Source: Dictyostelium discoideum
Taxonomy: Eukaryota
Assembly: GCA_000004695.1 (NCBI GenBank)
Contig: CM000155.2
Coordinates: 3,264,001-3,328,000 of the forward strand
Direction of reading: 5' to 3'
DNA length: 64,000 nucleotides
This document shows, in pieces, positions 3,287 through 33,313 of this stretch. Position 1 is the stretch's first letter, and each line of letters starts with the position of its first letter. The translations under genes and the position numbers were made by a program. The notes beneath the pieces are model-generated. The model was not told where the DNA came from, ran no database searches, and saw nothing but the letters and a program-made list of their open reading frames with translations.

Positions 3287-3361
3287 ATGAGTTTTAAAGA
3301 TGATGAAATAAATAATTACAATAATATCAATAGTAGCAATTATAATAATAATAATAATAAC

Positions 3362-3410
<49 letters not shown>

Positions 3411-4099
3411 GTGGTGATACAAATTTTGATAGTAGCGATGATGCAATCTTCATCTATGAAGAAGAAATTATACCAATACAGAAAGAACAGCAATCGCCAA
3501 TAATGACACCAGCAACACCAACTACAACAATAATAAATGATAAGCTACAACAACAAGAACAACAAGAACAACAACAACAAGAACAAACAGATAAACAATC
3601 ACATGAAGACCAACAGGATGAACAACAACAAATGGAAGATATAGAATATCAAGATATGGTAATAACAGAATATTCAGATAATAATAAAAGTAATGATAGT
3701 ATAGTAGTTGAAAATGAAAATTATGATAGTATGATTGTAGAAGATGATGTTATGGCAAATGTTAACAAAGAATCACAACTAATTGAACGAGAAGAATATA
3801 ACATACAACAATTTGAAACACCTCCTCAAGAACAACAAGAACAACAAAAAAAACAACAACAACAAGAACAACAACAAGAACAACAACAAGAACAACAACA
3901 AAACCTACAAAAAATAGCAACAACAGGTACTGATATAACAGGTACAGATACAAACATCACTACTACTACTACCACTACTGATACCCCAACCATTAAAATT
4001 AAATATAATGATGAATTATTCTTTAGAATGTGGAAAGATAAAGACATAAGTCAAATTATTTGGAAATGTGTGAAAATAAGGAGTGATCTATACAATACT

Positions 4100-4139
<40 letters not shown>

Positions 4140-6399
4140 ACAATAATAACAATAATAATAATAATAATAATAATATTACAAATAATAGAGTATGGAAATA
4201 TTATCAAACTCATTCATTAGAATGGTTAATTAAAAATAATCATTGGCAATTATTTAAATATCGTTTAAAACGTGGTGATTATATCTCATTCAATGAACAA
4301 TCATTTAAACTTATTCATAAATTATTTGATCAAATTAAATTATATGAAGAAAAAGATGAAAAAGAAAAAGAAAAAGAAAAAGATAATGATAAAAGTATTA
4401 ATAATAATAATAACAATAATAATAGTGAAAAGATAAAAGGTTGTAAATTAGATGGAAATGAAATTAAAGAGATATGGAGTTTATTCTATAGACAATATCA
4501 AACTACATTATTACATTGTTTAGATAATGCAGTAGCGGCAAATAACTTAATAGCTTTACAATCGATTGTAGAGAATTCATCATTTCTAATTCAATATCAA
4601 CCAGATATACAATATAAAGCAATAGCAAGTGGTAATGTTGAATTATTAGTTTATCTTCATAGTATTGGTATCGATTCAAAATTAAATCCCCTATTAGTAA
4701 TTGATTATGCTCAAAAATCTTCAAATGTTAGTAATATGATTAGATATTTAAATAATAAGAGATATAATACAAATAAATCACCCAATGATAATAATAATAC
4801 AACAACAGCGACAACAACAGCGACAACAAGTAACAATAATAAAAATACAACTACTACCACTACTACTACTACCACTACTACAAATACAAATTCAAATTCA
4901 AATTCAAATTTAAATTCAAATTCAAATTCAAATTCAAATTCAACTACAATGAGTAGTTCATCATTACCAAAATCACCAGAAAGTTTTATAACGGATGAAG
5001 ATTTTACAGAAGCAGAGAAAGAATTTTTAGGTTTAAAAGATTGTGTTTTAGTTGATAAAGATAGTATTATGTTACCAAGTTCAAGTTTATTATTTGACCA
5101 TTTAAAGAGTAAAACGGTATTTTATAAATTAGATTATGATTTACAATTGATTTTTGTTAGGGAGAGTAAGAATTGTAAAATTTCATTCTTGGAGGATTTA
5201 GTAAAATGTTTTAATCCTTGGAAAGATCATACACTACAATCGATGGATATTATCAACTATGTGAATATAATGCAAAAGATAATGAAAATGGATATATTTG
5301 GAAGCAAAGGTACAGCTGCATTATCATTATTAGAACTAGCCAATGGATCATTGTTTAGAATTTGTTCAAATTATAATAGTGATAATATCAATATCGATAG
5401 TATTGAAAATAATCAATTACTGTCTGGTAATTTACCAGATAGAGCAACATTAATGGAGTTATTATATAATCAATGGGTATTGCCATTAAAAGATACAACA
5501 TTCAATCAAAAGAATACATGCTATTATAAATCAATCACTCAAGGTAACACAATTGAAGCTGAAAAATTAAGATTTGAACAAATGAAACCATCAATCAACT
5601 ATTTAGAGAAAGCAACCTCTCTCTTGGAAATCTCATTTAGAAAAGCTCATATCCCTTCATTAGAATTATTCTTAAAAATTTATAAATTAAATCATCTTTT
5701 CACTTATGATTATCATAACTTTTTTTCAAATAAATTTCAAATTGATTCAAATTTATTTATAGATTTAAAAGAAGATAATAATAATAATATTAATATTAAA
5801 AATGAAATTAAAGAAGAAGAAGAAGAAAAAGAAAAAGATAATAATAATAATGAATCAATTGAAAAAAAGAAAAAAGAATTTTTAACAGTTTTATTAAGTA
5901 GAACAGAATTTACAAATTCATTCTATATGAATTTAATGATTACATTAATTGAAAAGAGAAAAGATTTTAAATTGGCAGAATTTTGTTTTCAATTTCAAAG
6001 TTGTAAAATTTATCAAACAAATTTATATCAAAGTGCGATAAAGAATAATAGTATTGAATTTTGTAAATTTTTATTTTCAAAATCTGTGAAATTACAAAAA
6101 CAGGATTTAGAACTTTTAACTACAATTCCAAATAATGTGGATTTATTAAAAGAGATTTTAAAATCAAATCAAGTACCATCATTAATTGAAATTTATCATT
6201 TAATGGAAAGATCAATTAAAGATTCAAGATTAGACATTTTAAAATGTCTTTTAGAATCTTTTCCTTCTTCAATGAAATTCGATTTATTAAATTATGCTGC
6301 AAATTTTAATAGAAATGAAATTATTGATTATTTAATGTTAAATCATTCAAATTCAATTAAAACTATAACTAGTAATGGTACATCTCCAAATTCAATATC

Positions 6400-19368: not shown

Positions 19369-22300
19369 TTATTTTGAAGAAATTAAATCTAATAAAGAAA
19401 TTGGAATTGAATTAAATAATTCAGTATCTTGTAAAATTTTTAATCTATTTTTACCAATATAACCTAATAAATAATTGAATAAAAATGCTAATTGTAAAGA
19501 ATATTTTGATTTGTGAATAAGAGTAAATAGTATACAAGCTTGTTTCAAATCAATTGATTTCTTTAGAATTCCAAATAATTCATTTGTAAGTTTATAATTA
19601 CCAAAACTAGTTGTTAAGAATAATAAATCTAAAATTTCATCACCAGAATTAATATTTAAATCTTTAGTAGTTTTTAAGAAAGATTTTTCAATTAACTCTT
19701 TTGAGAAACCAAATAATTGAATTGTATTATCATTTCCATTTTCTTTATTTGAAATTAATTCATATAAATATGGTGGTAAACATGCACTAGTTGTAGAAAT
19801 AATTGATTTTGTAAATTCATCATTTGAATTTTCTTGTTCTTGTTGTTTCTCATCATCACTACCTGAAAGTTTATTTTTTAATAATGAATCAATAAAATCA
19901 TAATTTTTGAAAAACCATAAGGATGATGATGATGAATTATAAACTTCAATTGTAATTGGTTTATCAACTTTTAATGAATTATTATTATTATTATCGTTAT
20001 TATTATTATTTAAACCATTTGGATGTAAAGGGAAATTTGATAAATCGTTCCAATACATTGAAGCATAGAAACCAGCTTTTGCATTATTATATTTATTAGA
20101 ATCAGAGATTAAAGTTGGGTTATAACAAAATTTTCTAGAACCTTCAACTAATTGATTTAGATCAGCACAACCCATACCATAGATTTTATTATTTTCAGTA
20201 ACAGCTATCCAATGACTACTACCACAAGATATTTTCTTAATAATTGTATTTTCATCAGGGAATGGTAAAGTGATTTGTTGAATTGGTTTTCTAGATCTGT
20301 CACTACCAATGCCCAATTGATAAAGTTTATTATCAACAGTTAAAGCCAACATTAATTTTGCACCAACAGCAACGTCAACGAATTTTTCATGTTTTGCAAC
20401 ATGTGTTGGAGTTTGTTGATTAGCAGGGGATTGATTTAAAGGGAATGGTAAAAAAGTTGGATCATAATGTTCAGAATTAATAAATTCAACATGTAAACTA
20501 ATGAAACATTTAATGAATCTTTCTAATGAGTAAGAATTATTTTTTGACCATAAAAGTAAAGAGATTGCATTCTCTTTAGTAATAGAATTTGAAATTAATT
20601 TCAATAAACCATCTTTAAATCTTGTCAACTTTAATTGATCACTAGTTGAACATAATGATAAAACAAAATCACCAGTTACAATTTCTTGTGGTAATAAATC
20701 AAATTTAATACGATCACAATATAAATATGCAATAATTAATATTAAATGATTATCTGGTATTGTTTTATCATTTAATTTAATTTCATTTGAATCATTTGAA
20801 TCATTTGAATTATCTATTTGATCAACTAATAATAAATTTTTAAAATAATTTAAACGTGAAATTAAAATTGATTTATGAGCTTTAATTTTAATTTTACCAT
20901 CATTTGAAATGATTGTACAATCGGATAAATTATCATCATCATTATTAAATCTTTTTAATAATTTACTTGGTATTGATAAATCTGATTCCTCTTGAATTAT
21001 ATTGAATGAAGTTTCATTTAAATAATTTGTTAATTGTTTACAATTGAAAAGTTTAGAATATTGAAAAAGTATTTTCATATTTCTTTTTGAAGTTGTATTT
21101 GTATAAATGAATGAAATGAAATCAATGAATGAATTTGAAAATAATTGATTCTCTTCAATTAATTGATCAAGTATTATTTTTTTATTTGATTCTTTATTAA
21201 AATCATCATCATCATCACCTTTACCATTATAATTCTTTGTTTTAATTACTAAATTTAAAAATTCAATAATATCAATTTTAACGATTTTATTAATTGATTT
21301 TAATTTTAATTGAATTAATTGATTTAATAATTCATCATTTTCTAAAATTGTTAAAAGTATTAAATGACAATAAGCTATTTCTTCAGTATTTTTATCTTTA
21401 CCAAATGTAATATGTAAATCTGAAAATTGTTTATTATTAATTAAATATGAATAATCTCTAGTTATTGATGAGGATGCAACCAATATTGATGGCAAATACT
21501 TTTTATCCGGTTCAATTGTGAATAGTGGTGGTGGTGAGGCTGTAGTTTCTTCAATACCAAGTTGAAAACGATCATTTCTACCACAAACAAATAGGTTACC
21601 ATTCTTTGTAATGAATGCACTATTAAAACCACCTGCTGAAATTTTTAAAATTTCAGAATCATTTTCATTATTATTTCTAGTATAATCATTAATATAATAA
21701 TTATTACTATTATTATTATTATTAATTTCACCATTATAATTTATAAATTCAATTGGTGTTGGTGTTTTAATATTTCCATTATTTGAAGTAACTATACCGA
21801 TTGAGTTAAATGTATTGGCACCCCAACCATAAACAGAGCCATCGGTTGCCAAAGCGATACAATGGTGATGACCAGATGCAATTTTTTTAATTGGTTTTTT
21901 CATTGGGTATGGATGAGTTGGCGATGCTTGACCATTTGAACAAACTTCAAAAAATAAACCCCAATTCCAAACCATACCATTACTATCTAAAATCGAACTA
22001 AAATAACGACCACATGAAATTGATTTAATTGGTGTTTTAAATTTAAAAATTCTATCTCTAACAAATAAATCACTTGAGAATAAATAATATTGAAAATTTA
22101 AATCGTCATAAAAATTATATACTGAATTTTTTTCGTCACCATTAACTCCTTTCTGGTCATCACAACTTTCATCATCAGTATTGGTGGTTGTAAATTTAAT
22201 TCTTTTCGATTCTCTTTGTTCTAAAGTTTCATTTTCAAATTGAACTGAAACAGATCTATTTCTACTTAATACCATATCAGAGATATTATCACTTTGATTC

Positions 22301-22476
22301 ATTATTTGCATTGTTTCGGGATGATTAGTTGTAGTTTTACTCTTATATTGATAATTATTTGTTACAGATTTTGATCCACTTGATGATTTTAAATAATAAC
22401 ATCTATAAAGTAATGACATTAAATTAAATTTAATTGATCCTTTGATTTCATTGGTTTTTAATTCATTTTCAATCAT
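19369..22476 (-). CDS. RCC1-repeat and BTB/POZ domain protein (1035 aa as a single exon; a further 5' exon at 22629-22763 is possible)
   Basis: ATG at 22476-22474. RCC1-like blades appear near both ends (GHHHCIALATDGSVYGWGAN..., SSHWIAVTENNKIYGMGCADLNQL). A central BTB-like segment is present (SDCTIISNDGKIKIKAHKSILISRLNYFKNLL). The upstream ORF MDIEQKQFFTEISDLFKS... (ATG 22763) could splice onto KLCLKGRNVDTIIPMIENELK at 22520. That requires a weak GTGCCT donor at 22627, so the extension is uncertain. Confidence 0.65.
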   Translation of the reverse strand: MIENELKTNEIKGSIKFNLMSLLYRCYYLKSSSGSKSVTNNYQYKSKTTTNHPETMQIMNQSDNISDMVLSRNRSVSVQFENETLEQRESKRIKFTTTNTDDESCDDQKGVNGDEKNSVYNFYDDLNFQYYLFSSDLFVRDRIFKFKTPIKSISCGRYFSSILDSNGMVWNWGLFFEVCSNGQASPTHPYPMKKPIKKIASGHHHCIALATDGSVYGWGANTFNSIGIVTSNNGNIKTPTPIEFINYNGEINNNNNSNNYYINDYTRNNNENDSEILKISAGGFNSAFITKNGNLFVCGRNDRFQLGIEETTASPPPLFTIEPDKKYLPSILVASSSITRDYSYLINNKQFSDLHITFGKDKNTEEIAYCHLILLTILENDELLNQLIQLKLKSINKIVKIDIIEFLNLVIKTKNYNGKGDDDDDFNKESNKKIILDQLIEENQLFSNSFIDFISFIYTNTTSKRNMKILFQYSKLFNCKQLTNYLNETSFNIIQEESDLSIPSKLLKRFNNDDDNLSDCTIISNDGKIKIKAHKSILISRLNYFKNLLLVDQIDNSNDSNDSNEIKLNDKTIPDNHLILIIAYLYCDRIKFDLLPQEIVTGDFVLSLCSTSDQLKLTRFKDGLLKLISNSITKENAISLLLWSKNNSYSLERFIKCFISLHVEFINSEHYDPTFLPFPLNQSPANQQTPTHVAKHEKFVDVAVGAKLMLALTVDNKLYQLGIGSDRSRKPIQQITLPFPDENTIIKKISCGSSHWIAVTENNKIYGMGCADLNQLVEGSRKFCYNPTLISDSNKYNNAKAGFYASMYWNDLSNFPLHPNGLNNNNNDNNNNNSLKVDKPITIEVYNSSSSSLWFFKNYDFIDSLLKNKLSGSDDEKQQEQENSNDEFTKSIISTTSACLPPYLYELISNKENGNDNTIQLFGFSKELIEKSFLKTTKDLNINSGDEILDLLFLTTSFGNYKLTNELFGILKKSIDLKQACILFTLIHKSKYSLQLAFLFNYLLGYIGKNRLKILQDTELFNSIPISLLDLISSK

Positions 22477-23473
22477 TGGTATAATTGTATCAACATTTCT
22501 ACCTTTTAAACATAATTTACCTAAAATTAAAATTAACTAAAAAATTTAAAAAAATTAGTATATTTTTGATTGGGAAAAAAAAAAAAAATAAAAAAATAAA
22601 AAAAAAAGTATTTTTTAATTGAGGCACCTACTTTATATTTAAATTCATTATTATCTGTTATTGTTGTTAATTTTTTATTAATTAATCTAATAGCTTTAAT
22701 TAGAAGATTGGATTTAAATAAATCTGAAATTTCTGTAAAAAATTGTTTTTGTTCAATATCCATTATTTTTTTAAGAATAGATATAGGAAAAAAAAAAATT
22801 TTATAAAAATATGTTATAACAATAATAAAGAAAAAAAAAAAAAAAAAAAGTGAGAAAAAAAAAAAAAATTTTCAAGAAAAATATAAGATTTTTTTTCTAT
22901 TTTTTTTGTTATTTTTGATTAAAAAAAAAAAATTGAAAATATCTATTTTTGAGAGTAAGAAATGTTTTGAGGCAGAAAAAAAAAATAGTTTTTCTTTTTT
23001 TTTTTTAATTTTATTTTTCATCCATTTTTTTTAACAATTATTTAAATTTATTTTTAATATGAATTTAATAGATATATAGAATACCCAAATTACACAAAAT
23101 AATATTAAATAAAAAAAAAAATGAATGCAAACATTCTGTTTTTTTAATTTTTTTTTCTTTTTTTTTTTTTTTTTCTAATCAAAAATTATTTTTAGAATTT
23201 AATTATTTATTTACCAATTTTTTATAATTGATTTTATTTTTTATAATTGATTTTATTTTTTATTTTTATTTTTTTTTTTTTTCAATGTCAAATTTGACAT
23301 GTTATTATTTTTTTTTTTTTTTTTGATTAAAAAAAATTAAAAAAAAAATAATAAAAATAACTATTAAAATAAAAAATAAAATAGGTAACATCTATTTTTA
23401 ATTTTAATTTTTAAATATATTTGTTTTTTTTATTTTTTTATTTTTATTTTTTTTATTTTTTTTTATTTTCAAT

Positions 23474-24018
23474 TCACATGATTTTACAAGATTGGTTTTT
23501 ATTTTTCTTTGGAAACGAAGATGGCGAATAAGAGATTGAAGTTATTGAAGACAAAGAAGATGAAGATGATGAAGTTATTGAAGAAGAAGAACAACTTAAG
23601 GATGATAATGATGATGATGATGATAATAATAAGAAATTTTGAAAATTATTTATAATTATAGTTAAGTTTATGAAAATATCCATTATTCTAATATTAAATT
23701 TTGCAGATGATTCAATGAAATGATTTGAGGTATAACCTAAATCAATTGCTAATTTTTCACCTTGTTCAGGTAATATTAAACGTTGTACTGATAGATCACA
23801 TTTATTACCGACGATTATCAACGGTACTTGTTTAGTTTCTCTAATTTTTTGAATCTCTGAATGAATGACCTTAATTTCTTCAAATGATTGAATTGAATCA
23901 ACTGAATATAATAATATAAATCCATTTGCATTTTTTATATTCTTTTTTCTAATTTCTTTATTTTGAATAGACTGATTACCACTATCAATCATTTTTAAAA
24001 TATAATCATTTGGTATAC

Positions 24019-24097
<79 letters not shown>

Positions 24098-24303
24098 ATT
24101 ATTATTTAAATTTTTATTATTATTATTATCATTTTCAATTGTAATTAATTTTTTATAAATTTGATCTAAAAAAGTTTCAAAATATTTTCCATCGTTTAAA
24201 AATTGACATATTATACTTGATTCTCCAGTTTTTTTACTTCCTAAAATTAAAATTTCATATTCTTTGATTTTATTTTTATTAAAATTATTGTTATAATTAT
24301 TAT

Positions 24304-24307
<4 letters not shown>
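23474..24307 (-). CDS. Divergent Ras-like small GTPase (277 aa): degenerate P-loop and switch II, 32-residue poly-Asn insert, C-terminal polybasic stretch plus CaaX box (CKIM)
   Basis: ATG at 24307. G1 reads GSKKTGES where GxxxxGK[ST] is expected, so the Lys is Glu. Switch II reads DSGNQS where DTAGQE is expected. G4 is an intact NKCD (VGNKCDL) and G5 is ESSAK. The C-terminus reads ...PKKNKNQSCKIM*. Confidence 0.65.
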
Positions 24308-24356
<49 letters not shown>

Positions 24357-24366
24357 AAATTATATT

Positions 24367-24726
24367 TTAGATATTACCATCACCAAAATTTGTTGCAACC
24401 ATTGGTTTACCACGATGAGCTAAATAAATGTCATATCCTTTTGATTGAATAAGATTTGTTTTAAATTCATAATGATGTTTTGCTTCATAATTATCACATT
24501 TATGAACTGGATGACAAATGAAAACATTTAAATTTTGAGCAACATAATGATTTACAACACCTTGAGTGAAATCAGATTGTGAACAATTTGGAGTACCTTT
24601 AAAAATATTTTCCAAATCTGCAAAGACCTTATTAAAATCTATATCAATTGAAATATCAGTTTGTACATTTGGTTGAATTTGATTGGTTTCATTGACTGAA
24701 TTTGATTTTTTAATTTTTGAATTCAT
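24367..24726 (-). CDS. Hypothetical protein, 119 aa
   Basis: ATG at 24726 and stop at 24367-24369. Only a 59-nt poly-T spacer separates it from the GTPase gene. No confident homology. Confidence 0.35.
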   Translation of the reverse strand: MNSKIKKSNSVNETNQIQPNVQTDISIDIDFNKVFADLENIFKGTPNCSQSDFTQGVVNHYVAQNLNVFICHPVHKCDNYEAKHHYEFKTNLIQSKGYDIYLAHRGKPMVATNFGDGNI

Positions 24727-25578
24727 TTTTTTTTTTTTGTTTTTTTGTTTATTTATTATTTATTATTATTAATATTAACAATCTATAATTGAAATGAAAA
24801 AATTGAAAAAAATAAATAAAACAATTTATAGTTTTTTTTTAAAAAATTATAAAAATTAAAATTTATTTTAAAATAAATTTATAAAAAATGGAGGTAATGA
24901 TTTTAATTATTTATAAATCTGATAAAAAAAGAGGGTTTAAATATTCTAATTATAAATATTTTAAAAAAATTTTAAATCTGGGGTTAAAAAATAAAAATAG
25001 AATAAAAAAATTAATGTTTTACCTTTTTCTAATTTCAGAAAAAAAGTGTTTTTTTTTGTATATCCACCTCCATCCTAATTTTTTTCACAAATCCAATATA
25101 TCCATTTTTTAAAATAAATTATTATTATTATTATTTTTTTTTTTAATAACATTGTCATTAAAGATAAATAAAAAACTATAACCAAACAGAAAAATAATAA
25201 AAATAATAATATTAATAACCCCTCAAACAAAAAAAACAAAATATATATTTTTTAAATAATTTTTTCATTTTACCATTTTATTTATTTTTTAATATTAATT
25301 TTTTTTTTTTTACCATCTATAATTATTTTTAAAAGATCAACAATCACTTTAATGTTTGGTATCAAAAGTTTATTTATAAATATTCAAATAATGATAAAGA
25401 AATAAAAAGGAAAGTTTTTTTTTTTTTTTTTGTATATATTAAAAAAATGAATTTATTTTTAAATAAATTAGATTAATGAACAATTTTGAGTTTTATTATT
25501 TAAAATAAAACAAAATAGTTATTATGATAATAATTTGTAGAGATTGTTTATTGAGGGTGTGGAATGATTTTTACAATT

Positions 25579-26259
25579 TTAGAAAGATAAGGAATTGAAC
25601 AATGGTTTTGTACCACCACCTGGAATGATTACGTGACCATACATTGAATGTAATTCAATGTCATTAGCAATGGCTAAGAAAATATCTCTTGGTTGAATTA
25701 AAGTTCTCTTGGCTGATACTGCCCCATTACTAGATAACTCTAATATTTCAGAAAGCAAATATTCAATAACAGCTGATAAATAATGCATTGAAGAATTTGA
25801 AATTCTGTAATTATAATTCATTTGTTTTACCTTTGTTTTTAAATAAGAATGTGGGATTATTGGTGGGTGGGAAATTGGTGGAGCAGGAATTGAAGAAGGG
25901 GATGAAGGAGTGGCGGTTTTTGCTGGTGGTGGTTGTGGTGGATATTGCTTTGCGGAATTAAAATTTGTAACTCTTTTAACACCTTCAGAGACTGCATGTC
26001 TTGAAATTTCACCAACAGTACATAAACGAACGGAAGTTTGAACGTCACGTGCACTTAAGGTTCTTTTATTTGAAAGTTGTACTAAATGAAATGCTTCATT
26101 CATAATACTAATTGTTGTATCTCTAATTAAACTAGTTAAAATTTGAACACTCTTAACTTGAATTCTACATGCTGGATTAATTTGTTTAATTAACTTTTTG
26201 ATGTAAATTCCTTCTCTTACATGTGTATGCTGTGTTGATCGTCTTCCTCTATGTCTCAT
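25579..26259 (-). CDS. H2Bv3: Single-chain histone H2B-H2A fusion: N-terminal H2B histone fold, Pro-rich linker, C-terminal H2A histone fold and docking region (226 aa)
   Basis: ATG at 26259. Residues ~15-105 (EGIYIKKLIKQINPACRIQVKS...NKRTLSARDVQTSVRLCTVGEISRHAVSEGVKRVT) align with H2B alpha1-alphaC. Residues ~150-220 (YLSAVIEYLLSEILELSSNGAVSAKRTLIQPRDIFLAIANDIELHSMYGHVIIPGGG) align with the H2A alpha2-alpha3/docking region ([57 protein letters not shown]). The symbol comes from my recollection that the Dictyostelium H2Bv3 variant carries both domains. Confidence 0.75.
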   Translation of the reverse strand: MRHRGRRSTQHTHVREGIYIKKLIKQINPACRIQVKSVQILTSLIRDTTISIMNEAFHLVQLSNKRTLSARDVQTSVRLCTVGEISRHAVSEGVKRVTNFNSAKQYPPQPPPAKTATPSSPSSIPAPPISHPPIIPHSYLKTKVKQMNYNYRISNSSMHYLSAVIEYLLSEILELSSNGAVSAKRTLIQPRDIFLAIANDIELHSMYGHVIIPGGGTKPLFNSLSF

Positions 26260-27079
26260 CTCTCTTTTTTTTTTTTAATTTGAAAAAATAAAATAAATGT
26301 ATTAAAAAAAAAAAAAAAAAATTAATTTTTAGAAAAAAAAAAGAAAATTATTTTTTTTAAAAAAAAAAAAAAATAAATAAAAAAAATAAAAAAAAATAAA
26401 ACAAATTTAATTTATAGGAAATATGAAAATATCTGTAAAAATTTGAATGAATGAAAAAAAAAATATCTTTTCAAAAACAAATTTTAAAAAAAATTCGAAA
26501 ACACATCATCGCCAATATTAGGAAATTTTTATCCAAATTTTTGAGTTATTTAAAGATATTTTTTTGATAATATTTAATAATATACATATATATTTTTTCT
26601 TTTAGTTTTTGTTTTTTATAATATTAAAAAAAAAAAAAAAAAAAAAAGCTTAATTATTTTATTTAATTTTAAAAACTATCATATTTAAAACTCAATATAA
26701 TAATACAACATTTTAAAATTCATTAACAGATAATTATCTCAAAAATAATAATTGAATTACATTTTAAAATTAAATTTCCCCAATAAAAAAAAAAAAAAAA
26801 AAAAAAAAAGAAAAAATTTAAAATTTTAATTAATTTTTTAATGAATGATTATTTTTTTTTTTTTAAATTTTATAGTTTTTATTGTTATCTAAAATAACTC
26901 ACTATCATTCTCAAGTATTCTTGACCTATTAATAAATTTAATTTTAAAAAAAAAAAGAAAAATTGTAAAACACCAGAACAAAAAGTTTTTTAAAAAAATT
27001 TTATGGGATGGGGAATTGGTATAAAACAAAAACCAACCTTTCTTTTTTTAAATAAGTAAAATAAATAAAATAAAATAAA

Positions 27080-27424
27080 ATGTCATCAAATAATAAACCA
27101 AATTTAGAAGCAGTTATTAAAGGTATTCAAACTAATAAAATATTAGAAGTATTTGATAAATATTATCATCAAGATATAATTATGTATGAAAAGGGTGATT
27201 CAACTAACCGTGTTGGTAAAGCTGCAAATCGTAAAGCTGAAGAATCTTTTGTTAATAATGCAACAATCCATGAAGCAAAATTATTAAAACTACTAGTTGA
27301 TGCTAATAATACAGCATATGAAATGTATATGGATTTTACATATGGTGGACATCGTATTAAAAAGAGCCAATGGGCCGTTCAACAATGTTCAAATGTTTTA
27401 ATTATCAAAGAGGAATTTTATTAA
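27080..27424 (+). CDS. Small hypothetical protein, tentatively NTF2-like/SnoaL-like fold (114 aa)
   Basis: ATG at 27080. Its size and hydrophobic periodicity resemble SnoaL-like proteins, but the family call is weak. Confidence 0.4.
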   Translation: MSSNNKPNLEAVIKGIQTNKILEVFDKYYHQDIIMYEKGDSTNRVGKAANRKAEESFVNNATIHEAKLLKLLVDANNTAYEMYMDFTYGGHRIKKSQWAVQQCSNVLIIKEEFY

Positions 27425-27592
27425 TTTATATTTTTTGAAAATGCACAATAAAACTTAATAAAAATAAAGAACATACAAATTTTTATAATCTTATTTAAAA
27501 ACTGAGTTGAATTTTTATTTTATTTCTTACCAGAGTACTTAAAAGGCCTGAGGTCAATTTAATAAAACTAATTTTGAGAATTGTTTTAAGTA

Positions 27593-27608
27593 TAGAATCG
27601 AACCCTCG
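27593..27608 (-). promoter_or_regulatory. Extra B-box (ex-B box, GGTTCGAATCC-like) ~30 bp downstream of tRNA-Glu
   Basis: The minus strand reads GTCGAGGGTTCGATTC with no acceptor stem, so it is not a tRNA. Ex-B boxes downstream of Dictyostelium tRNA genes are an established feature. Confidence 0.5.
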
Positions 27609-27633
27609 ACTAATATCAGTTAGTTTGAAAAAG

Positions 27634-27705
27634 CTCCCCATTCGGGAATCGAACCCGAGGTACCAGTGTGAAAGACTAGAGTGTTACCGACTACACCAAT
27701 GAGGA
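27634..27705 (-). tRNA. tRNA-Glu (anticodon UUC), 72 nt
   Basis: The minus strand reads TCCTCATTGGTGTAGTCGGTAACACTCTAGTCTTTCACACTGGTACCTCGGGTTCGATTCCCGAATGGGGAG. The acceptor stem is TCCTCAT/ATGGGGA with one G-U pair. The anticodon loop is CTTTCAC and the T-loop is GGTTCGATTCC. Confidence 0.85.
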
Positions 27706-28375
27706 TTTGGTTGAAACTTTGTTTTCAATAATTTAATAAATTGGTTTTTTCTGAGATCGAAAAAACAAAAAAGATGTTTTAATCAAAAGTAATAATACAA
27801 TTCAAAATTTGAAACAAAAAAAAAAGTAAACTAACCCCTCTTTTAGAGACCCTGTAAATAAACTACAAATAAACTGAGATCTAGCATCTCAAGGAGGAGC
27901 AACTAATAATTGCGTTATTTCAAAAATTAAAGGTTTAATTAGAATTTTAACACATTAATATAAAAATTCGAAATAGAGTATTTTTTTTTTTTTTGAACAA
28001 TTTCTTAAAGAAATTAATCAAATTTTAAAAACAATTTTTTTCGTTCCATCTATTTTTAAAACAATTCTTTTTTTTATCAGAATTTAAAAATTTACTTTTA
28101 ATTATTTTAGATTAATGAATTATTCATTGCCTATTTGAATTATTTGAAAAATAAGTTGTTTAAAATCAATGGGTCATTTTATTTTATTTTATTTTATTTT
28201 TTCTTTTGTATTCTTTTCTTTTCTTTAATTTTTTTTTTTTTTTTTTCTATCTTTAAAAATAGATATTATTTGGATTTTGGTTTTTTAAAAGATTGTTCGT
28301 TTTTCAATAAATGTAAAAATAATACTGTTTGGGAAATAATGGGACAGTTATTTCAATATAAGGGTTATATATAAT

Positions 28376-28426
<51 letters not shown>

Positions 28427-29161
28427 TAGCCATCTCAATATGGGATTTAATGTTTTTTTTTTTTAAAAAAATATAAAATTATAGTTTAATTTTAAAAAAA
28501 AAAAAAAAAAAACCCTAATATACGAAATGTATTAAAAAAAAAAAAAAGAGATTAAAAATCTAATTAGAATTTTTTAAAGAAAATTATAATATGGTTATTT
28601 TTTAATATTATTGGGTTAGTTCTAATGATTTTTTATAATAATCAATAAAAGAATATTTTTTTAATTCACAGATGTTTCGTTTATTTTTGGGTCATGATGT
28701 GGTTCGATTGGAGAATTGTTTATTTTTTTTTTTTTTATATTTTTTTTATTTTTTTAATTTTTTTTTTTTTTTTAACAAATAAAAGATTTTTATGTTGAAA
28801 AAGCCATTATAGTTTTTTGAATGACGAGAAGATATTTTTTGTTGAAAAAGAATTGATTTTTTTAAAAACCAATAGGGTAATGAGAAAAAAAAAAAAAAAA
28901 AAAAGATCAAAAACATTTCTAAATAATCGAGATTTTTAAAACTAATTAATATGAACACAATGAACATCTTAATCAAATAAAATTGATGATCATGATTCTA
29001 TTAATTTTATTTTATTTTAATTTTTGTTTTTTTTTTATAAAAAAAAAAAAAACGAATCAAAAAAAAAAAAAAATGATATAAGAAAAAAATAGTATAAATG
29101 TGTTAAAATAATTTTAATTTTTTTTTTTTTTTTTTTTAATCACAACTAAAATTTATAAAAA

Positions 29162-30683
29162 ATGAAAAATATAAATATTTTAATATTTATCTTTATTTAC
29201 TTAATCGGGTTTGTTTTATCAGGTAAAAATATCTTTTTTTTATTAAAAAAAAAAAATTTGGATTATGGACCAAATTTTTTATTTTCACATTCACCCCAAA
29301 ACGCCGTTTTTCAAAATTTTTTTGTTTTTTTTTTTAATTTGTTTTACTAATATTAAAAATAAATAAAATTATATATAAATAAATAGATGATGATGAATTA
29401 AAAATTATTAGAGTTGAAAGAATAGATGAAATTGAATATGGTTCAATAGATTGTTCAATTAGATTTAATGTATTAATTGATTATCCAAGACCATTAGTAT
29501 TTGTAAGTGGAATTGGTGGGGTTGTGAATGGTGATGCAAAAGTTAAAAATGGAACATTAACAATTTATCAAATTAGACATACAGTATTGGTTGGAAATAA
29601 TAGTGTATCATTTCAAGCACATGACTATACCAATTACCAATACCCATACCCAGTTTATATAAATAAAACAGATTATGCAATTGCACAATGTGATCAATTA
29701 CCAAGTAATGTCAAATTTGTATCAAAACAAAATAGATGGAATTCAATTAGTGGTTTTGGAACTCCATTCAATTGGTTTAAATTATTGAATCCAATTAATT
29801 TGGACATAGGAAAAGGTTTCTCAAATTATGAATTCGTTTGTCAAGTTCCTCAACCTTACGGCTGCTATTTTTATCCAGCTCAAAATGGTGGATACCAAAA
29901 AAGAAACTATTGGTTAATTGTATTTATTCAAGCTACAAATACATACATTCCATTTAATCCAACAACCAATGTTTTAATAAAGTCAAAACAAGGTACAATC
30001 GCTTTCAATAGTACATTTGATGGTTTAAAAGATCCAACTAATCCACCAATGCAATTATTAAATTTTGAATCTTTTCCACCAATAAACTCTGTTTTAAGTT
30101 TTGGTGAAATGACAAATCATGCAACTTTTCAAACTCAAATTATAAATAATAAAAATACACTCACTAGTATTTCAAAAGAAGATGATGAAATGATTCAAAG
30201 TCAATTAATTCCATTACTTGGTTCAACTTCAAATGCAACTTTTATTGGTATTTCTGAATTTAGTACTGCTACTCAAAATAATAAAATGCATCTTCAAATT
30301 GTTGATAATCAAGGTGCTAAAAGAATTGGTGGTGATATTTCAATTAGTACAAAATGTAAATAATAATTTTTATTTTATTTTATTTTACTTTATTTTTTTT
30401 TTTTTATTTACTAATTTTTTAATTATTTTAAATAATAATAGTAAAAGATTCAAGTGCTTCTTTTGATAGTGATATAAAAACTTCAATTATTAATGAAACC
30501 AATTTTGGATCAAGATATATTTACCATACAAATGTTAAATTTGATACTTCATATGATCCAACTATGACTGTTTCTTTCGATGACCAATTTTCTTATGAAG
30601 TTATTCCACCATCTTTCCCATATGGTTAGTATCTTTGATTAATTGATTTAATTTATATATAATTATGTATTGTTCTTTATTTT

Positions 30684-30718
<35 letters not shown>

Positions 30719-30882
30719 ATTAATTTTTAGGTATTTCAAATGGTACATTACGTAATCATTCAATTTCAATTTCATCTGCTACTGGTAGCTTCTATAGTGG
30801 TAATTTAAATTGTTACCGTAATGGTGATCATTCAAAGTCTGAAAAGATTGCAAATATTATTTCAAGTAATACTGGTAAATAT

Positions 30883-30925
<43 letters not shown>

Positions 30926-33313
30926 CTTTTTTTATATACAAAAACTAAAATTTCTTTTTAAAAATGATGAATTTAATTTTAATTTATTAAAAATTTTATT
31001 TATTTATTTTTAAAATAGATTTAAATCCAGCTGTTATTAGTGAAGTTGAGTTATTTAATTTATCATTTGATAAAGTACTTATTAGAATAAAAGCAAATGA
31101 TGATATTTCTGGTATTAAATATTTAGATGTTTTTAGATTTAAAATTCAAAGTTCAGATTTAGTTTGGGGTAACCCAATGAATGGTGTTTATGAAGCAATT
31201 GCATCAGTAATTGAATATTCAACTATGAAAACTATACCAGTTATTTCTTTTGATTATAAAGGAAATAATCAAGGTATTGATCAAGATAATCCAATTATTG
31301 ATACAAATTTTAATAAGGTTCCAAATTTCCCAACTTTAAGTAAGTATTATTTTTTTTTTTAAAAAAAAAAAAAATTTTATTAACAATTAATTAAACTAAC
31401 TAATTCTTTTCTTTTCTTTTCTTTTTTTTTTTTCAATATAGATTATATTAAAGATAAAAAATTAGATCCATTTAATTTTACATCATTTTCATTTAAATAT
31501 AATGATATTGATGTTTCAAATCAAGCATTTAATAATACATTATGTTTTGGTTTATCAGGTGCTGATAAAGGAATGGTTCCACAATTTTTCCTTTTATATT
31601 CACCAACAAATATGAAAGCATATGAAACTGATAAACCATTTATTGGTGCATGGGATCCATTAAAAAATCAATTCTGTATTGATTTCATAATTCCTGCTAG
31701 AATTTTCTCTGGTGAAATTAATTATATTATTTTCTTTTCTCCATTTATTTATGATCGTGGTTATATTATAAATTCAGTTGGTTCTACTGCTCAATTAAGA
31801 GTTTTATCAAATTGTATGTCATTATTTAAATTATTATTATTATTATTATCATTATTATTATTATTATTTTAAATTTTCTAAAATATTAATAAATTATTTT
31901 TTTTTCATTTTATTTTTTTTATTTGTATTTATTTTTTAAATATTTATAGATGCTGATCAATTACCACCAATTATTACAGAATTTAATGCATACCCATCAA
32001 CAAATGTTAATGTAAATAGTGAAAAAATAATTGGATGGGATTTAAGAATTGAAGATTTAACAAATGGTTTATTATCAGCAGAATTTAATATTACAAGTGA
32101 ATATGATTTAAATCCAATTACAATTAAATTAACACCAAACAATGCTGTATCTGGTAATGATAAATCTGGTGTTTATCAATTAAGATTCCCAGTTTCACCA
32201 AATTGTAGATCACAATCTTATAGAATTTCATCAGCAAAATTAACTGATGCTCAAGGTCATTTTGGTGTTACTCCATCAACATATAATTTTAATCCATTCA
32301 TTAAATTCCTTTCATCAAATCAACTCAGAATTAATACTACATGTCCAATTGGTAATAATGATAATGAATCACCAATTTTAAATAGTTTTAAATCTAGTTT
32401 AGTTTCTATTGATGTTGGTGGATTCAAAGAGAATAGAACGGTTGTATTTGAATTTACAACCTCTGATTCTGGTTCTGGAATTTCAACAAGACATAATCCA
32501 TTGGTTTATTTATCAAAACCAACAAGTAGTAAAATTTCATGTCAATCTAAACTATTATCATACACAAATGGACAAGCAAATTATAGTTGCTCCATTGAAT
32601 TACCATATGGTTTTGGTGCACATGATGCTTTATTAATATCAATTTATGGTATTGTTGATAATCAATCAAATATGAATGGTTATTCAAGTTTTGATCTTAA
32701 ATCACTTGGTTTCCAATATTCTTTATTAAGCCAATTTTCAGATATTCCAGTTTTAGAATCAACCTCTTCAATTACAAATCAAGCTTCAACTCTTACCATT
32801 TATGGTCACAAATTTGGAATTGATTCAAGTAAAGTTACACTTCAAGTTAATTATAATAATGGTCAAGGTTGGAAAAATACATCAGTTTCATTCTATGCTG
32901 GTATAGTTTTAATCACCGATAGTATCACTCCAACTTCTACACCATTTTATGTTCGTGTAATTGTTAATAATATTATTTCAAATCAAATAATAGTAACACC
33001 AACTTTAATTCCAACTCAATGTAATTATCAAGTTGATCAAACTATTATTTCAAAATGGATAAATAGCGAAGTTTATCATTATCTTCAAGCTTCAATTACT
33101 ATTAAAAATAATGGTATCAAACCAATCAAAGCATTTAGTTTCATGATGTCAAATATTGATCAAATTTGGGGTGTAACAATCTCATCTGGTCCAACTTATT
33201 CTTTACCAAGTTGGAATCCAACTATTAATCCTGGTAATGAATATACTTTTGGTTACATCCTTAAAGGTACTGATGTAGGTCAATTAGTTAATGTTATGGT
33301 TGATTGTTCATAA
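29162..33313 (+). CDS. Large secreted protein (about 1133 aa) in 7 exons join(29162..29222,29387..30355,30442..30624,30731..30874,31031..31339,31442..31813,31950..33313); signal peptide in exon 1; C-terminal region resembles Dictyostelium-type carbohydrate/cellulose-binding modules
   Basis: Exon 1 is MKNINILIFIFIYLIGFVLSG with donor GTAAAA. All six introns are phase 1. Their donors are GTAAAA, GTAAAT, GTTAGT, GTAAAT, GTAAGT and GTATGT, and each has an AG acceptor (exon-5 acceptor placement at 31029-31030 chosen because only it fits the frame). Total exon length is 3402 nt and stays in frame. The C-terminus (IWGVTISSGPTYSLPSWNPTINPGNEYTFGYILKGTDVG...VDCS) looks like a CBM-type module. Its functional identity is uncertain. 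Confidence 0.55.

Follow-up and report, generated by a model that had tools for sequence, protein, structure and literature searches.

H2Bv1 of Dictyostelium discoideum, a putative cellular single-chain H2B-H2A histone variant shared by both dictyostelid orders

Our study of a 64,000-nucleotide (nt) stretch of the Dictyostelium discoideum genome (assembly GCA_000004695.1, contig CM000155.2, positions 3,264,001 to 3,328,000 of the forward strand, referred to here as the window) revealed that the gene for the histone variant H2Bv1 encodes two different histone folds in one chain. The protein is confirmed to consist of a tail-less H2B fold, a disordered proline-rich linker and an H2A fold, an arrangement that we refer to as a doublet. 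H2Bv1 is probably a genuine cellular single-chain H2B-H2A histone variant, fast-evolving and deposited into nucleosomes as one unit. There is strong support for a single origin of the fusion, earlier than the divergence of the two dictyostelid orders, and for its retention since then as an intron-bearing chromosomal gene. The gene itself is already catalogued in dictyBase, UniProt and RefSeq; what is new is the recognition of its architecture, the breadth of that architecture and its evolutionary meaning, and the architecture seems to have passed unremarked. Our literature search returned no description of the H2Bv1 fusion, although the UniProt and dictyBase entries and a 2011 review of Dictyostelium chromatin may already note two domains.

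The initial annotation of the window had described a tethered H2A-H2B pair as very unusual among eukaryotes, and recent analyses agree, regarding H2B-H2A fusions as unconfirmed or unobserved in cellular eukaryotes (PMC9145170, PMC11222145). Talbert, Armache and Henikoff attributed the apparent H2B-H2A fusions of animal databases to mis-spliced neighbouring genes (PMC9145170), and the second of these histone-evolution analyses drew an evolutionary-ratchet argument from the absence of fusions, with Dictyostelium excluded from its trees (PMC11222145). A conserved, intron-bearing and selected H2B-H2A gene across both orders of Dictyostelia is a counterexample, and one that resides in a genetically tractable model organism. 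We suggest, with some reserve, that dictyostelid cells naturally build nucleosomes with a covalent H2B-H2A chain kept since before the orders split. This would make it the first doublet to be confirmed in a cellular eukaryote. If true, it would directly contradict the view that eukaryotic chromatin cannot accommodate fused histones, and would leave room for a domesticated giant-virus histone at work in the chromatin of its host.

Architecture and identity of H2Bv1

The gene occupies positions 25579..26259 of the minus strand of the window as one uninterrupted open reading frame (ORF) of 226 amino acids (aa), from ATG to stop, in the list of ORFs and their translations. Its features are as follows, all on the minus strand.

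25579..26259, minus strand: complete single-exon coding sequence (CDS) of H2Bv1, 226 codons and a stop (ORF list; identity with Q54BC2; gene call in GCA_054883475.1)
26218..26259, minus strand: residues 1-14, Arg/His-rich N-terminal stub MRHRGRRSTQHTHV, which has no Lys and replaces the Lys-rich H2B tail (M1 and R4 invariant in 10 dictyostelid doublets)
25945..26217, minus strand: residues 15-105, H2B histone fold (alpha1, alpha2, alpha3) and the H2B-specific alphaC (Pfam Histone 39.5 bits; PDB H2B chains at E ~ 1e-17; 41% identity to human H2B)
25858..25944, minus strand: residues 106-134, Pro/Ser/Thr-rich disordered linker at the position of the H2A N-terminal tail (predicted local distance difference test, pLDDT, 44-75)
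25621..25857, minus strand: residues 135-213, H2A histone fold (alpha1, alpha2, alpha3, alphaC) and the first docking-domain strand, acidic patch retained (Pfam Histone 35.8 bits; PDB matches to H2A only)
25579..25620, minus strand: residues 214-226 and stop, short divergent C-terminal end GGTKPLFNSLSF that replaces the distal docking domain and C-tail, with no H2A K118/K119 (pLDDT < 50 at 215-226; no PF16211)

The ORF list, Pfam and the PDB matches agree on one frame with the order H2B fold, Pro-rich linker, H2A fold, as had been proposed, and no stop, start or splice site lies between the H2B and H2A halves. The sequence is that quoted in the initial annotation, including the N-terminus MRHRGRRSTQHTHV and the linker PPQPPPAKTATPSSPSSIPAPPISHPPIIP (residues 107-136). 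An additional upstream exon was considered and is not needed, because all orthologs share M1 and the MR.R start, which is also where the called gene models begin.

The window protein is identical over its exact sequence to D. discoideum AX4 XP_628972.1 / EAL60556.1 / UniProt Q54BC2 (H2BV1_DICDI, 'Histone H2B.v1'). A further D. discoideum assembly, GCA_054883475.1, matches the window, and its called gene has limits identical to those of the H2Bv1 ORF. The name H2Bv3, which the initial annotation gave to this gene, belongs to another locus (DDB_G0286509). Both are H2B-family genes of D. discoideum, but H2Bv3 has its own termini, MVFVKGQKK...YNPTESKN, as decoded from published primers. H2Bv3 is the main H2B of vegetative cells and the usual tagged H2B nuclear marker (PMC5333086, PMC2995078). 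This clears up a naming trap, in that the doublet is H2Bv1 and the workhorse H2B is H2Bv3.

The two halves were scanned separately (residues 1-106 and 137-226) against Pfam PF00125 (Histone), and both scored above the gathering cut-off of 26.4 bits, the N half with 39.5 bits and the C half with 35.8 bits. Searched against all PDB sequences, the full protein found its best matches in engineered single-chain H2B-H2A constructs, which it matched over residues ~17-219 at E = 1e-31 to 1e-35. H2B singlets matched the N half (E ~ 1e-17), and the 60 best matches of the C half alone were all to H2A, either as a separate chain or within a fusion (E = 1e-14 to 1e-17). Identity to the human histones is 41% to H2B for the N half and 46% to H2A for the C half. 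At the level of sequence, the similarity of the halves to H2B and H2A is far above chance. The single-chain reading of the initial annotation stands, because the ORF is unsplit and the C half scores as H2A. The annotation had, however, limited the H2A part to ~75 aa of the alpha2-alpha3/docking region, and this was too narrow, as the whole fold is present over about 90 aa. Its description of a short, Lys-poor N-tail was borne out by the 14-aa stub, which aligns opposite the basic KKRKRSRK segment of human H2B and is modelled at pLDDT < 50 over residues 1-12.

AlphaFold2 (AF2) models of D. discoideum H2Bv1 and of its Polysphondylium violaceum ortholog P0008 had predicted template modelling scores (pTM) of 0.76 and 0.79, with both folds at pLDDT > 90 in each and disorder confined to the N-stub, the linker and the C-end. 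The helices of the H2B half were placed at residues 10-27, 35-62, 70-80 and 83-105 (alphaC), all at pLDDT > 90, and those of the H2A half at 137-147, 155-182, 190-199 and 201-211, assigned as alpha1, alpha2, alpha3 and alphaC. The H2A module begins at an I135-P136 pair that aligns with H2A F25-P26, and the chain stops ~13 aa past the GG motif. Both models superpose on crystal structures of single-chain (sc) H2B-H2A and scH2B-H2A.Z by Foldseek, with template modelling scores normalized to the target (TMt) of 0.82-0.94 and root-mean-square deviations (rmsd) down to 1.3-1.6 Å; the two folds are therefore predicted to pair intramolecularly in the canonical handshake. The handshake envisaged in the initial annotation is thus predicted with high confidence by AF2 and Foldseek, and intramolecular pairing of the H2A-H2B type, with the geometry of the canonical dimer and of engineered scH2B-H2A, is strongly supported by the models. 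Domain-swapped oligomers may also be formed by chains modelled in this way.

The fusion across dictyostelids

Doublets were present in Dictyostelium species (one gene), P. violaceum (two paralogs), Heterostelium album (three tandem genes) and one uncultured dictyostelid (P0056). They are free-standing proteins of 206-232 aa, and the ORF is intact in at least 11 genes. No intron, frameshift or stop separates H2B from H2A in any of the eight species or lineages examined, and introns, where present, lie within the H2A half. D. discoideum AX4, a divergent D. discoideum isolate, D. cf. discoideum, D. citrinum and the uncultured P0056 all have an unbroken ORF, and the H2B-to-H2A junction falls inside exon 1 in D. 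firmibasis, in both P. violaceum genes and in all three H. album genes.

The introns also date the fusion. P. violaceum P0008 and P0011 have introns of 69 nt, and H. album copies A, B and C all bear introns, of 114 nt in B and C. In all five genes the intron is in phase 0 and separates H2A codons 76 and 77. H. album belongs to the Acytosteliales and P. violaceum and Dictyostelium to the Dictyosteliales, and a fused gene with this intron must therefore have existed before the two orders diverged. The D. firmibasis doublet (contig L008, 8395-8479) has an 84-nt intron after H2A R42, in loop L1, a site different from that between codons 76 and 77, and no intron interrupts the doublets of D. discoideum, D. 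cf. discoideum, D. citrinum or P0056. This pattern implies that the family has both lost an intron and independently gained another.

In H. album the three tandem genes lie on contig L016 (GL290983.1, 3299-8593), with starts at 4669, 6001 and 7706, and the array adjoins a transposase gene (DDE_Tnp_4, Harbinger-type) at 3299-4431. The RefSeq model PPL_00136 (457 aa; 'Histone H4' in UniRef) is a wrong merger of tandem copies B and C, as copy B carries its own second exon and stop codon. A natural H2B-H2A-H2B-H2A quadruplet was thereby ruled out.

This merger bears upon the possibility that H2Bv1 is itself an annotation artefact of wrongly joined neighbouring histone genes, or else a dead fusion decaying as a pseudogene. 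Such errors are the usual explanation of apparent animal H2B-H2A fusions (PMC9145170), and the H. album model is a true instance of the error. In an exhaustive HMMER search, moreover, several of the 150 highest-ranked two-domain chains had 91-100% identity to human H2A plus H2B, as expected of artefacts of this kind. Yet the two genes that it unites are each already an H2B-H2A doublet, the halves in the window are joined without stop, start or splice site, and the junction is intra-exonic in every species. In addition, intact frames persist in the genes counted above with a ratio of nonsynonymous to synonymous substitution rates (dN/dS) significantly below 1. We therefore rejected this explanation, whose probability we consider negligible, on the grounds of the continuous ORF, the intra-exonic junctions and selection.

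The dictyostelid doublets were monophyletic in 194 of 200 bootstraps of a neighbour-joining tree, which took in metagenomic doublets and concatenated human and yeast H2B-H2A. A profile of the clade built without the H. album copies favoured those copies by 72 bits over a canonical H2B+H2A profile, whereas every non-dictyostelid doublet scored higher with the canonical profile. Within the D. discoideum group the flanks are syntenic and hold ordinary cellular genes (a DUF7743/CBM49 gene, a small GTPase and an RCC1-BTB protein). The flanks of the other dictyostelid doublets are also cellular, with genes such as eIF5, V-ATPase A, PheRS, importin, FANCI, NRDE-2 and AMMECR1. No other histone gene was found in the 64-kb window by tblastn. 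The nearest neighbours of H2Bv1, at 27080-27424 on the plus strand (114 aa) and 24169-24726 on the minus strand (138 aa), have no Pfam match, and neither is chromatin-related.

By the Nei-Gojobori method, dN/dS was 0.35-0.55 across the gene as a whole and 0.28-0.76 when the folds were taken separately. The synonymous excess was significant for the whole gene (Fisher p = 1e-4 to 5e-4) and for both folds singly in the oldest pair, P. violaceum versus P0056. Between AX4 and the divergent D. discoideum isolate the CDS is 95.6% identical and the flanks 87-93%. As judged from these sequence comparisons, H2Bv1 is under purifying but relaxed selection, and the significant synonymous excess, together with a CDS better kept than its flanks, indicates a functional gene. 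The divergent isolate (contig L018 of GCA_054859385.1, labelled D. discoideum, with ACTFIR_ tags) has 87-93% DNA identity to 12 kb of the window (19579-32259), which suggests a cryptic lineage and not ordinary variation within the species.

The linker behaves differently from the folds, as its dN/dS ranged from 0.3 to > 2 and was not consistently < 1. Its length runs from ~0 aa in P. violaceum to ~30 aa, and it is enriched in Pro, Ser and Thr in D. discoideum and in acidic residues and Gly in H. album. A long, disordered, exposed and poorly constrained linker, as found in D. discoideum, would suit a polyprotein precursor in which cleavage within the Pro-rich segment yields separate, equimolar H2B-like and H2A-like variants. 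However, the P. violaceum orthologs are nearly without a linker, with H2B residue ~125 joined to H2A residue ~22 across a very short junction modelled at pLDDT 87-92, and no conserved cleavage motif is visible across the species. We regard cleavage as highly improbable.

Conserved surfaces and a proposed role in chromatin

To place individual residues, 11 dictyostelid doublets were aligned to human H2A/H2B numbering, with residue roles taken from established knowledge of nucleosome structure. The H2A acidic patch is kept at five of its six residues (E56, E61, E64, D90 and E92), which are invariant in all 11 doublets, E91 being variable. H2A R42, N68, P80 and R81 and H2B T88 and R99 are likewise invariant in this set. 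The H2B partners of the acidic patch, E105 and E113, are retained in most doublets, including that of AX4, and the H2A L2 residues K74 and T76 are conserved. Lost from the doublets are both N-tails, the distal docking domain and C-tail, and H2A K118/119; at the position of the H2B ubiquitylation lysine K120, D. discoideum has Asn and the other species have K, R or Q. Basic residues have been gained in all doublets at H2B G53 (to Arg or Lys) and H2B Y42 (to Lys). In the nucleosome, H2B loop L1 and H2A loop L2 form one DNA-binding site, and H2B alpha1 and H2A alpha1 another. The gains fall in the same DNA sites as the loss of the minor-groove arginines H2A R29 and R77, and so may compensate for it. 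H2Bv1 as a whole has a net charge of +16 and a pI of 10.2.

In the mechanism that we propose, H2Bv1 would take the place of one H2A-H2B dimer in the nucleosome and so fix the stoichiometry of the two folds at 1:1. The unit would enter without H2B or H2A N-tails, with a shortened docking domain and C-tail and without H2A K118/119, and in D. discoideum also without the H2B K120 site; it would not be tail-modifiable, nor ubiquitylatable at the canonical sites. The intact H2A acidic patch would still be available to the H4 tail and to chromatin factors. Loss of R29 and R77, perhaps offset by the basic residues at H2B 42 and 53, would weaken DNA wrapping, and with the short docking domain the resulting particle may, by analogy, resemble nucleosomes of short H2A variants and of the Marseillevirus doublet. 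Deposition in nucleosomes is suggested by the conserved surfaces and by these precedents. Rapid change in sequence and copy number suggests that the role would be specialized, possibly stage-specific or conflict-driven, and not one in bulk chromatin. Accessible to study are the questions of how chaperones, remodellers and ubiquitin ligases handle a fused dimer in vivo, and of how a tail-less, non-ubiquitylatable, acidic-patch-competent H2A-H2B unit affects the stability of the nucleosome.

Several observations weigh against deposition in nucleosomes as a conserved variant. Of the H2A minor-groove arginines only R42 is invariant, R29 being replaced by Y in all doublets and R77 by L, Q or I (L in D. 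discoideum), and R71 and R88 are also lost clade-wide. Conservation is also poor at the H2B-H4 interface, where H2B Y83 is not retained throughout and H2B E76 has disappeared from the polysphondylid forms; this counts against tight integration into the octamer. H. album lacks H2A P80-R81. Pfam PF16211 (Histone_H2A_C) is unmatched by the window protein and by the Dictyostelium and P. violaceum orthologs, while viral doublets match it; an H. album gene model gives a faint match only, and more of the canonical H2A C-terminal segment survives in H. album and P0056. Core histones are expected to evolve much more slowly than H2Bv1, and the doublet dN/dS of 0.3-0.8 lies far above what that general expectation would allow them. 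Database-wide searches turned up no named doublet ortholog for D. purpureum, Cavenderia, Tieghemostelium or Acytostelium, so the gene is either dispensable in some lineages or missed by annotation there. Evidence of expression is thin. The H2Bv1 coding sequence served as a Northern probe, for which a wild-type signal was reported (PMC7190356), and the protein was a below-threshold identification in hypoxia proteomics (PMC12750705). Candidate transcripts among Logan short contigs (L002-L004) are collinear with the genome and carry no poly(A) or splice information. Under the proposed mechanism, H2Bv1 would reside in chromatin as an uncleaved chain.

Some of these observations would also suit a non-nucleosomal mimic of the H2A-H2B dimer that binds or titrates Nap1/FACT-type chaperones, importins or acidic-patch binders, or that binds DNA by itself. 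Such a protein would parallel the tandem histone folds of SOS and of ABTB-type proteins (PF26281, Histone_ABTB), which also place two folds in one chain as an H2A-H2B-like pseudodimer and have left chromatin. The loss of the DNA-inserting R29 and R77, the weak H2B-H4 interface, the fast evolution and the truncated docking domain are all in keeping with this, and the H2Bv1 model also resembles the SOS histone domain (1Q9C) with a TMt of ~0.8. The resemblance in sequence is nonetheless specific to H2B and H2A (41-46% per fold, E = 1e-17), compared to 18-21% for SOS among the weaker Foldseek matches. The SOS and ABTB domains sit within large signalling proteins, whereas the dictyostelid doublets are small, free-standing and strongly basic and leave PF26281 unmatched. 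Conservation of the acidic patch, R42, L2 K74 and T76, and H2B T88 and R99 further argues against a mimic, which we consider unlikely. A nucleosomal variant remains our preferred reading of H2Bv1.

Origin of the doublet and comparison with known systems

The doublet may have arisen by native fusion, to which we give the greater weight, or by ancient capture from a virus. Under capture, which we consider a less probable but serious candidate, an ancestor of the Dictyostelia would have acquired a Marseillevirus-like H2B-H2A gene that later gained introns and a host role, and this is compatible with either function discussed above. In cells, H2A and H2B are mostly encoded by genes that stand apart or are divergently arranged, so that a fusion by simple read-through is improbable. 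The H2B-to-H2A order and tail-less layout match those of viral doublets, and Ala at H2A 88 (LAIAND) in doublets of the D. discoideum group is also found in viral P0009, P0010 and P0012. In addition, the nearest non-dictyostelid two-fold chains with a checked context lie on virus-like contigs (L005, L006 and L015), and the neighbour-joining tree attaches the dictyostelid clade among metagenomic doublets and not beside the human and yeast concatenates.

However, that position is typical of long-branch attraction in a tree that lacks the native amoebozoan singlets. A search for native H2Bv3/H2AX singlets, baited with the two window halves flanked by published terminal peptides, found none among 117 candidates. 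Identity is 18-28% to named viral doublets and 30-38% to metagenomic ones, no closer than the 41-46% per fold to human H2B and H2A, and the preference of all non-dictyostelid doublets for the canonical profile also speaks against capture. Scanning of IMG/VR viral contigs for patterns from the dictyostelid profile, a weak approach for diverged sequences, gave 87 pattern matches, none of which tblastn confirmed as a relative. No viral gene lies near any dictyostelid copy, and tblastn found no H3 or H4, and hence no H4-H3 doublet, in the window or at any dictyostelid doublet locus; in L005 and L006, by contrast, an H4-H3 doublet lies next to the H2B-H2A doublet. Whether cellular doublets stem from native fusion or from the giant viruses of amoebae is a question that the dictyostelid genes make accessible.

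The three virus-like contigs just mentioned are metagenomic, and each has an H2B-H2A doublet beside a second histone gene of ~230 aa (L005 4180-5860, L006 3969-5783, L015 10001-11764), which tblastn identified as the H4-H3 doublet in L005 and L006. These pairs lie among ORFans, with a UQ_con gene in L005 and a TFIIS-type gene in L006, and their H2B-H2A doublets (P0009 and P0013) have long Lys-rich C-terminal tails; L015 carries DUF5901 genes in addition to its second histone gene. Another protein from a virus-like contig, P0186, shares the motifs 'IIPPS' and 'SAVIEYILSEI' with the dictyostelid clade and was considered as a viral link to it, but was set aside as the dictyostelid and canonical profiles score it equally.

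More than 1,100 representative proteins matched a doublet profile at E <= 1e-30, and the top 150 all scored ~198 bits or more, as two-fold chains do; those sampled comprised both virus-like doublets and pairs of cellular genes merged in error. A separate doublet of interest is P0058 (EukProt EP01127), a Trinity transcript of the tubulinean amoeba Copromyxa protea that encodes a 285-aa H2B-H2A doublet and is a candidate cellular or viral gene. It is more canonical than the dictyostelid doublets, with 52% and 59% identity to human H2B and H2A, and ends in a tail of FG-repeat-like GGFGQAPAPAF repeats. This transcript hints that doublets may be more widespread in Amoebozoa. P0030 is a further EukProt Trinity doublet, and P0044, a 324-aa protein from a JGI metagenome contig of 1027 nt, carries a ubiquitin-like domain N-terminal to an H2B-H2A doublet in the same chain.

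Measured against known histones, H2Bv1 has the H2A and H2B folds and the acidic patch, and lacks the tails, the ubiquitylation sites, R29/R77 and a full docking domain. In its mode of action it would be like engineered scH2B-H2A and the viral Hbeta-Halpha doublets. The giant-virus doublets (Marseillevirus/Melbournevirus Hbeta-Halpha and miniH2B-H2A; Pithovirus; Clandestinovirus) share with it a single chain, H2B first and short or absent tails. The Melbournevirus doublet (7n8n_B) resembles the H2Bv1 models at TMt 0.73-0.78 and 25-26% identity, and structural matches in BFVD comprised the Marseillevirus, Pithovirus and Clandestinovirus doublets at 18-28% identity. Viral doublets are reported to form nucleosome-like particles (PMC8357426, PMC12297534), and the structures 7n8n and 9cvt were among the Foldseek matches, a precedent for such particles from chains of this type. 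In contrast to the viral proteins, H2Bv1 is encoded on a cellular chromosome with conserved synteny, in a family with spliceosomal introns and with no H4-H3 doublet nearby, and by these genomic criteria it falls outside the viral family.

The mammalian short H2A variants (H2A.B/Bbd, H2A.L and H2A.P) offer a functional analogy and not homology. They have a reduced acidic patch; like H2Bv1, they evolve rapidly and are truncated, having lost part of the docking domain and C-tail together with K118/119, and the H2Bv1 model fits the H2A.Bbd-H2B dimer (6A7U) at TMt 0.88-0.90. They are, however, separate polypeptides, whereas in H2Bv1 the acidic patch is invariant and H2B is covalently attached.

Close counterparts in sequence and predicted fold are the engineered scH2B-H2A and lnkH2B-H2A.Z proteins (6W4L, 2JSS, 4M6B, 4NFT and 7DLX). 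These join the H2B C-terminus to the H2A N-region in the same order, and scH2B-H2A aligns with H2Bv1 from end to end at 28-37% identity, with the E-values and TMt given above; the junction of the P. violaceum doublets is about as short as the engineered one. H2Bv1 differs from them in its diverged DNA-contact residues, its shortened H2A docking end, its tail-less H2B N-end and, in D. discoideum, its ~30-aa Pro-rich linker, and in being a natural protein.

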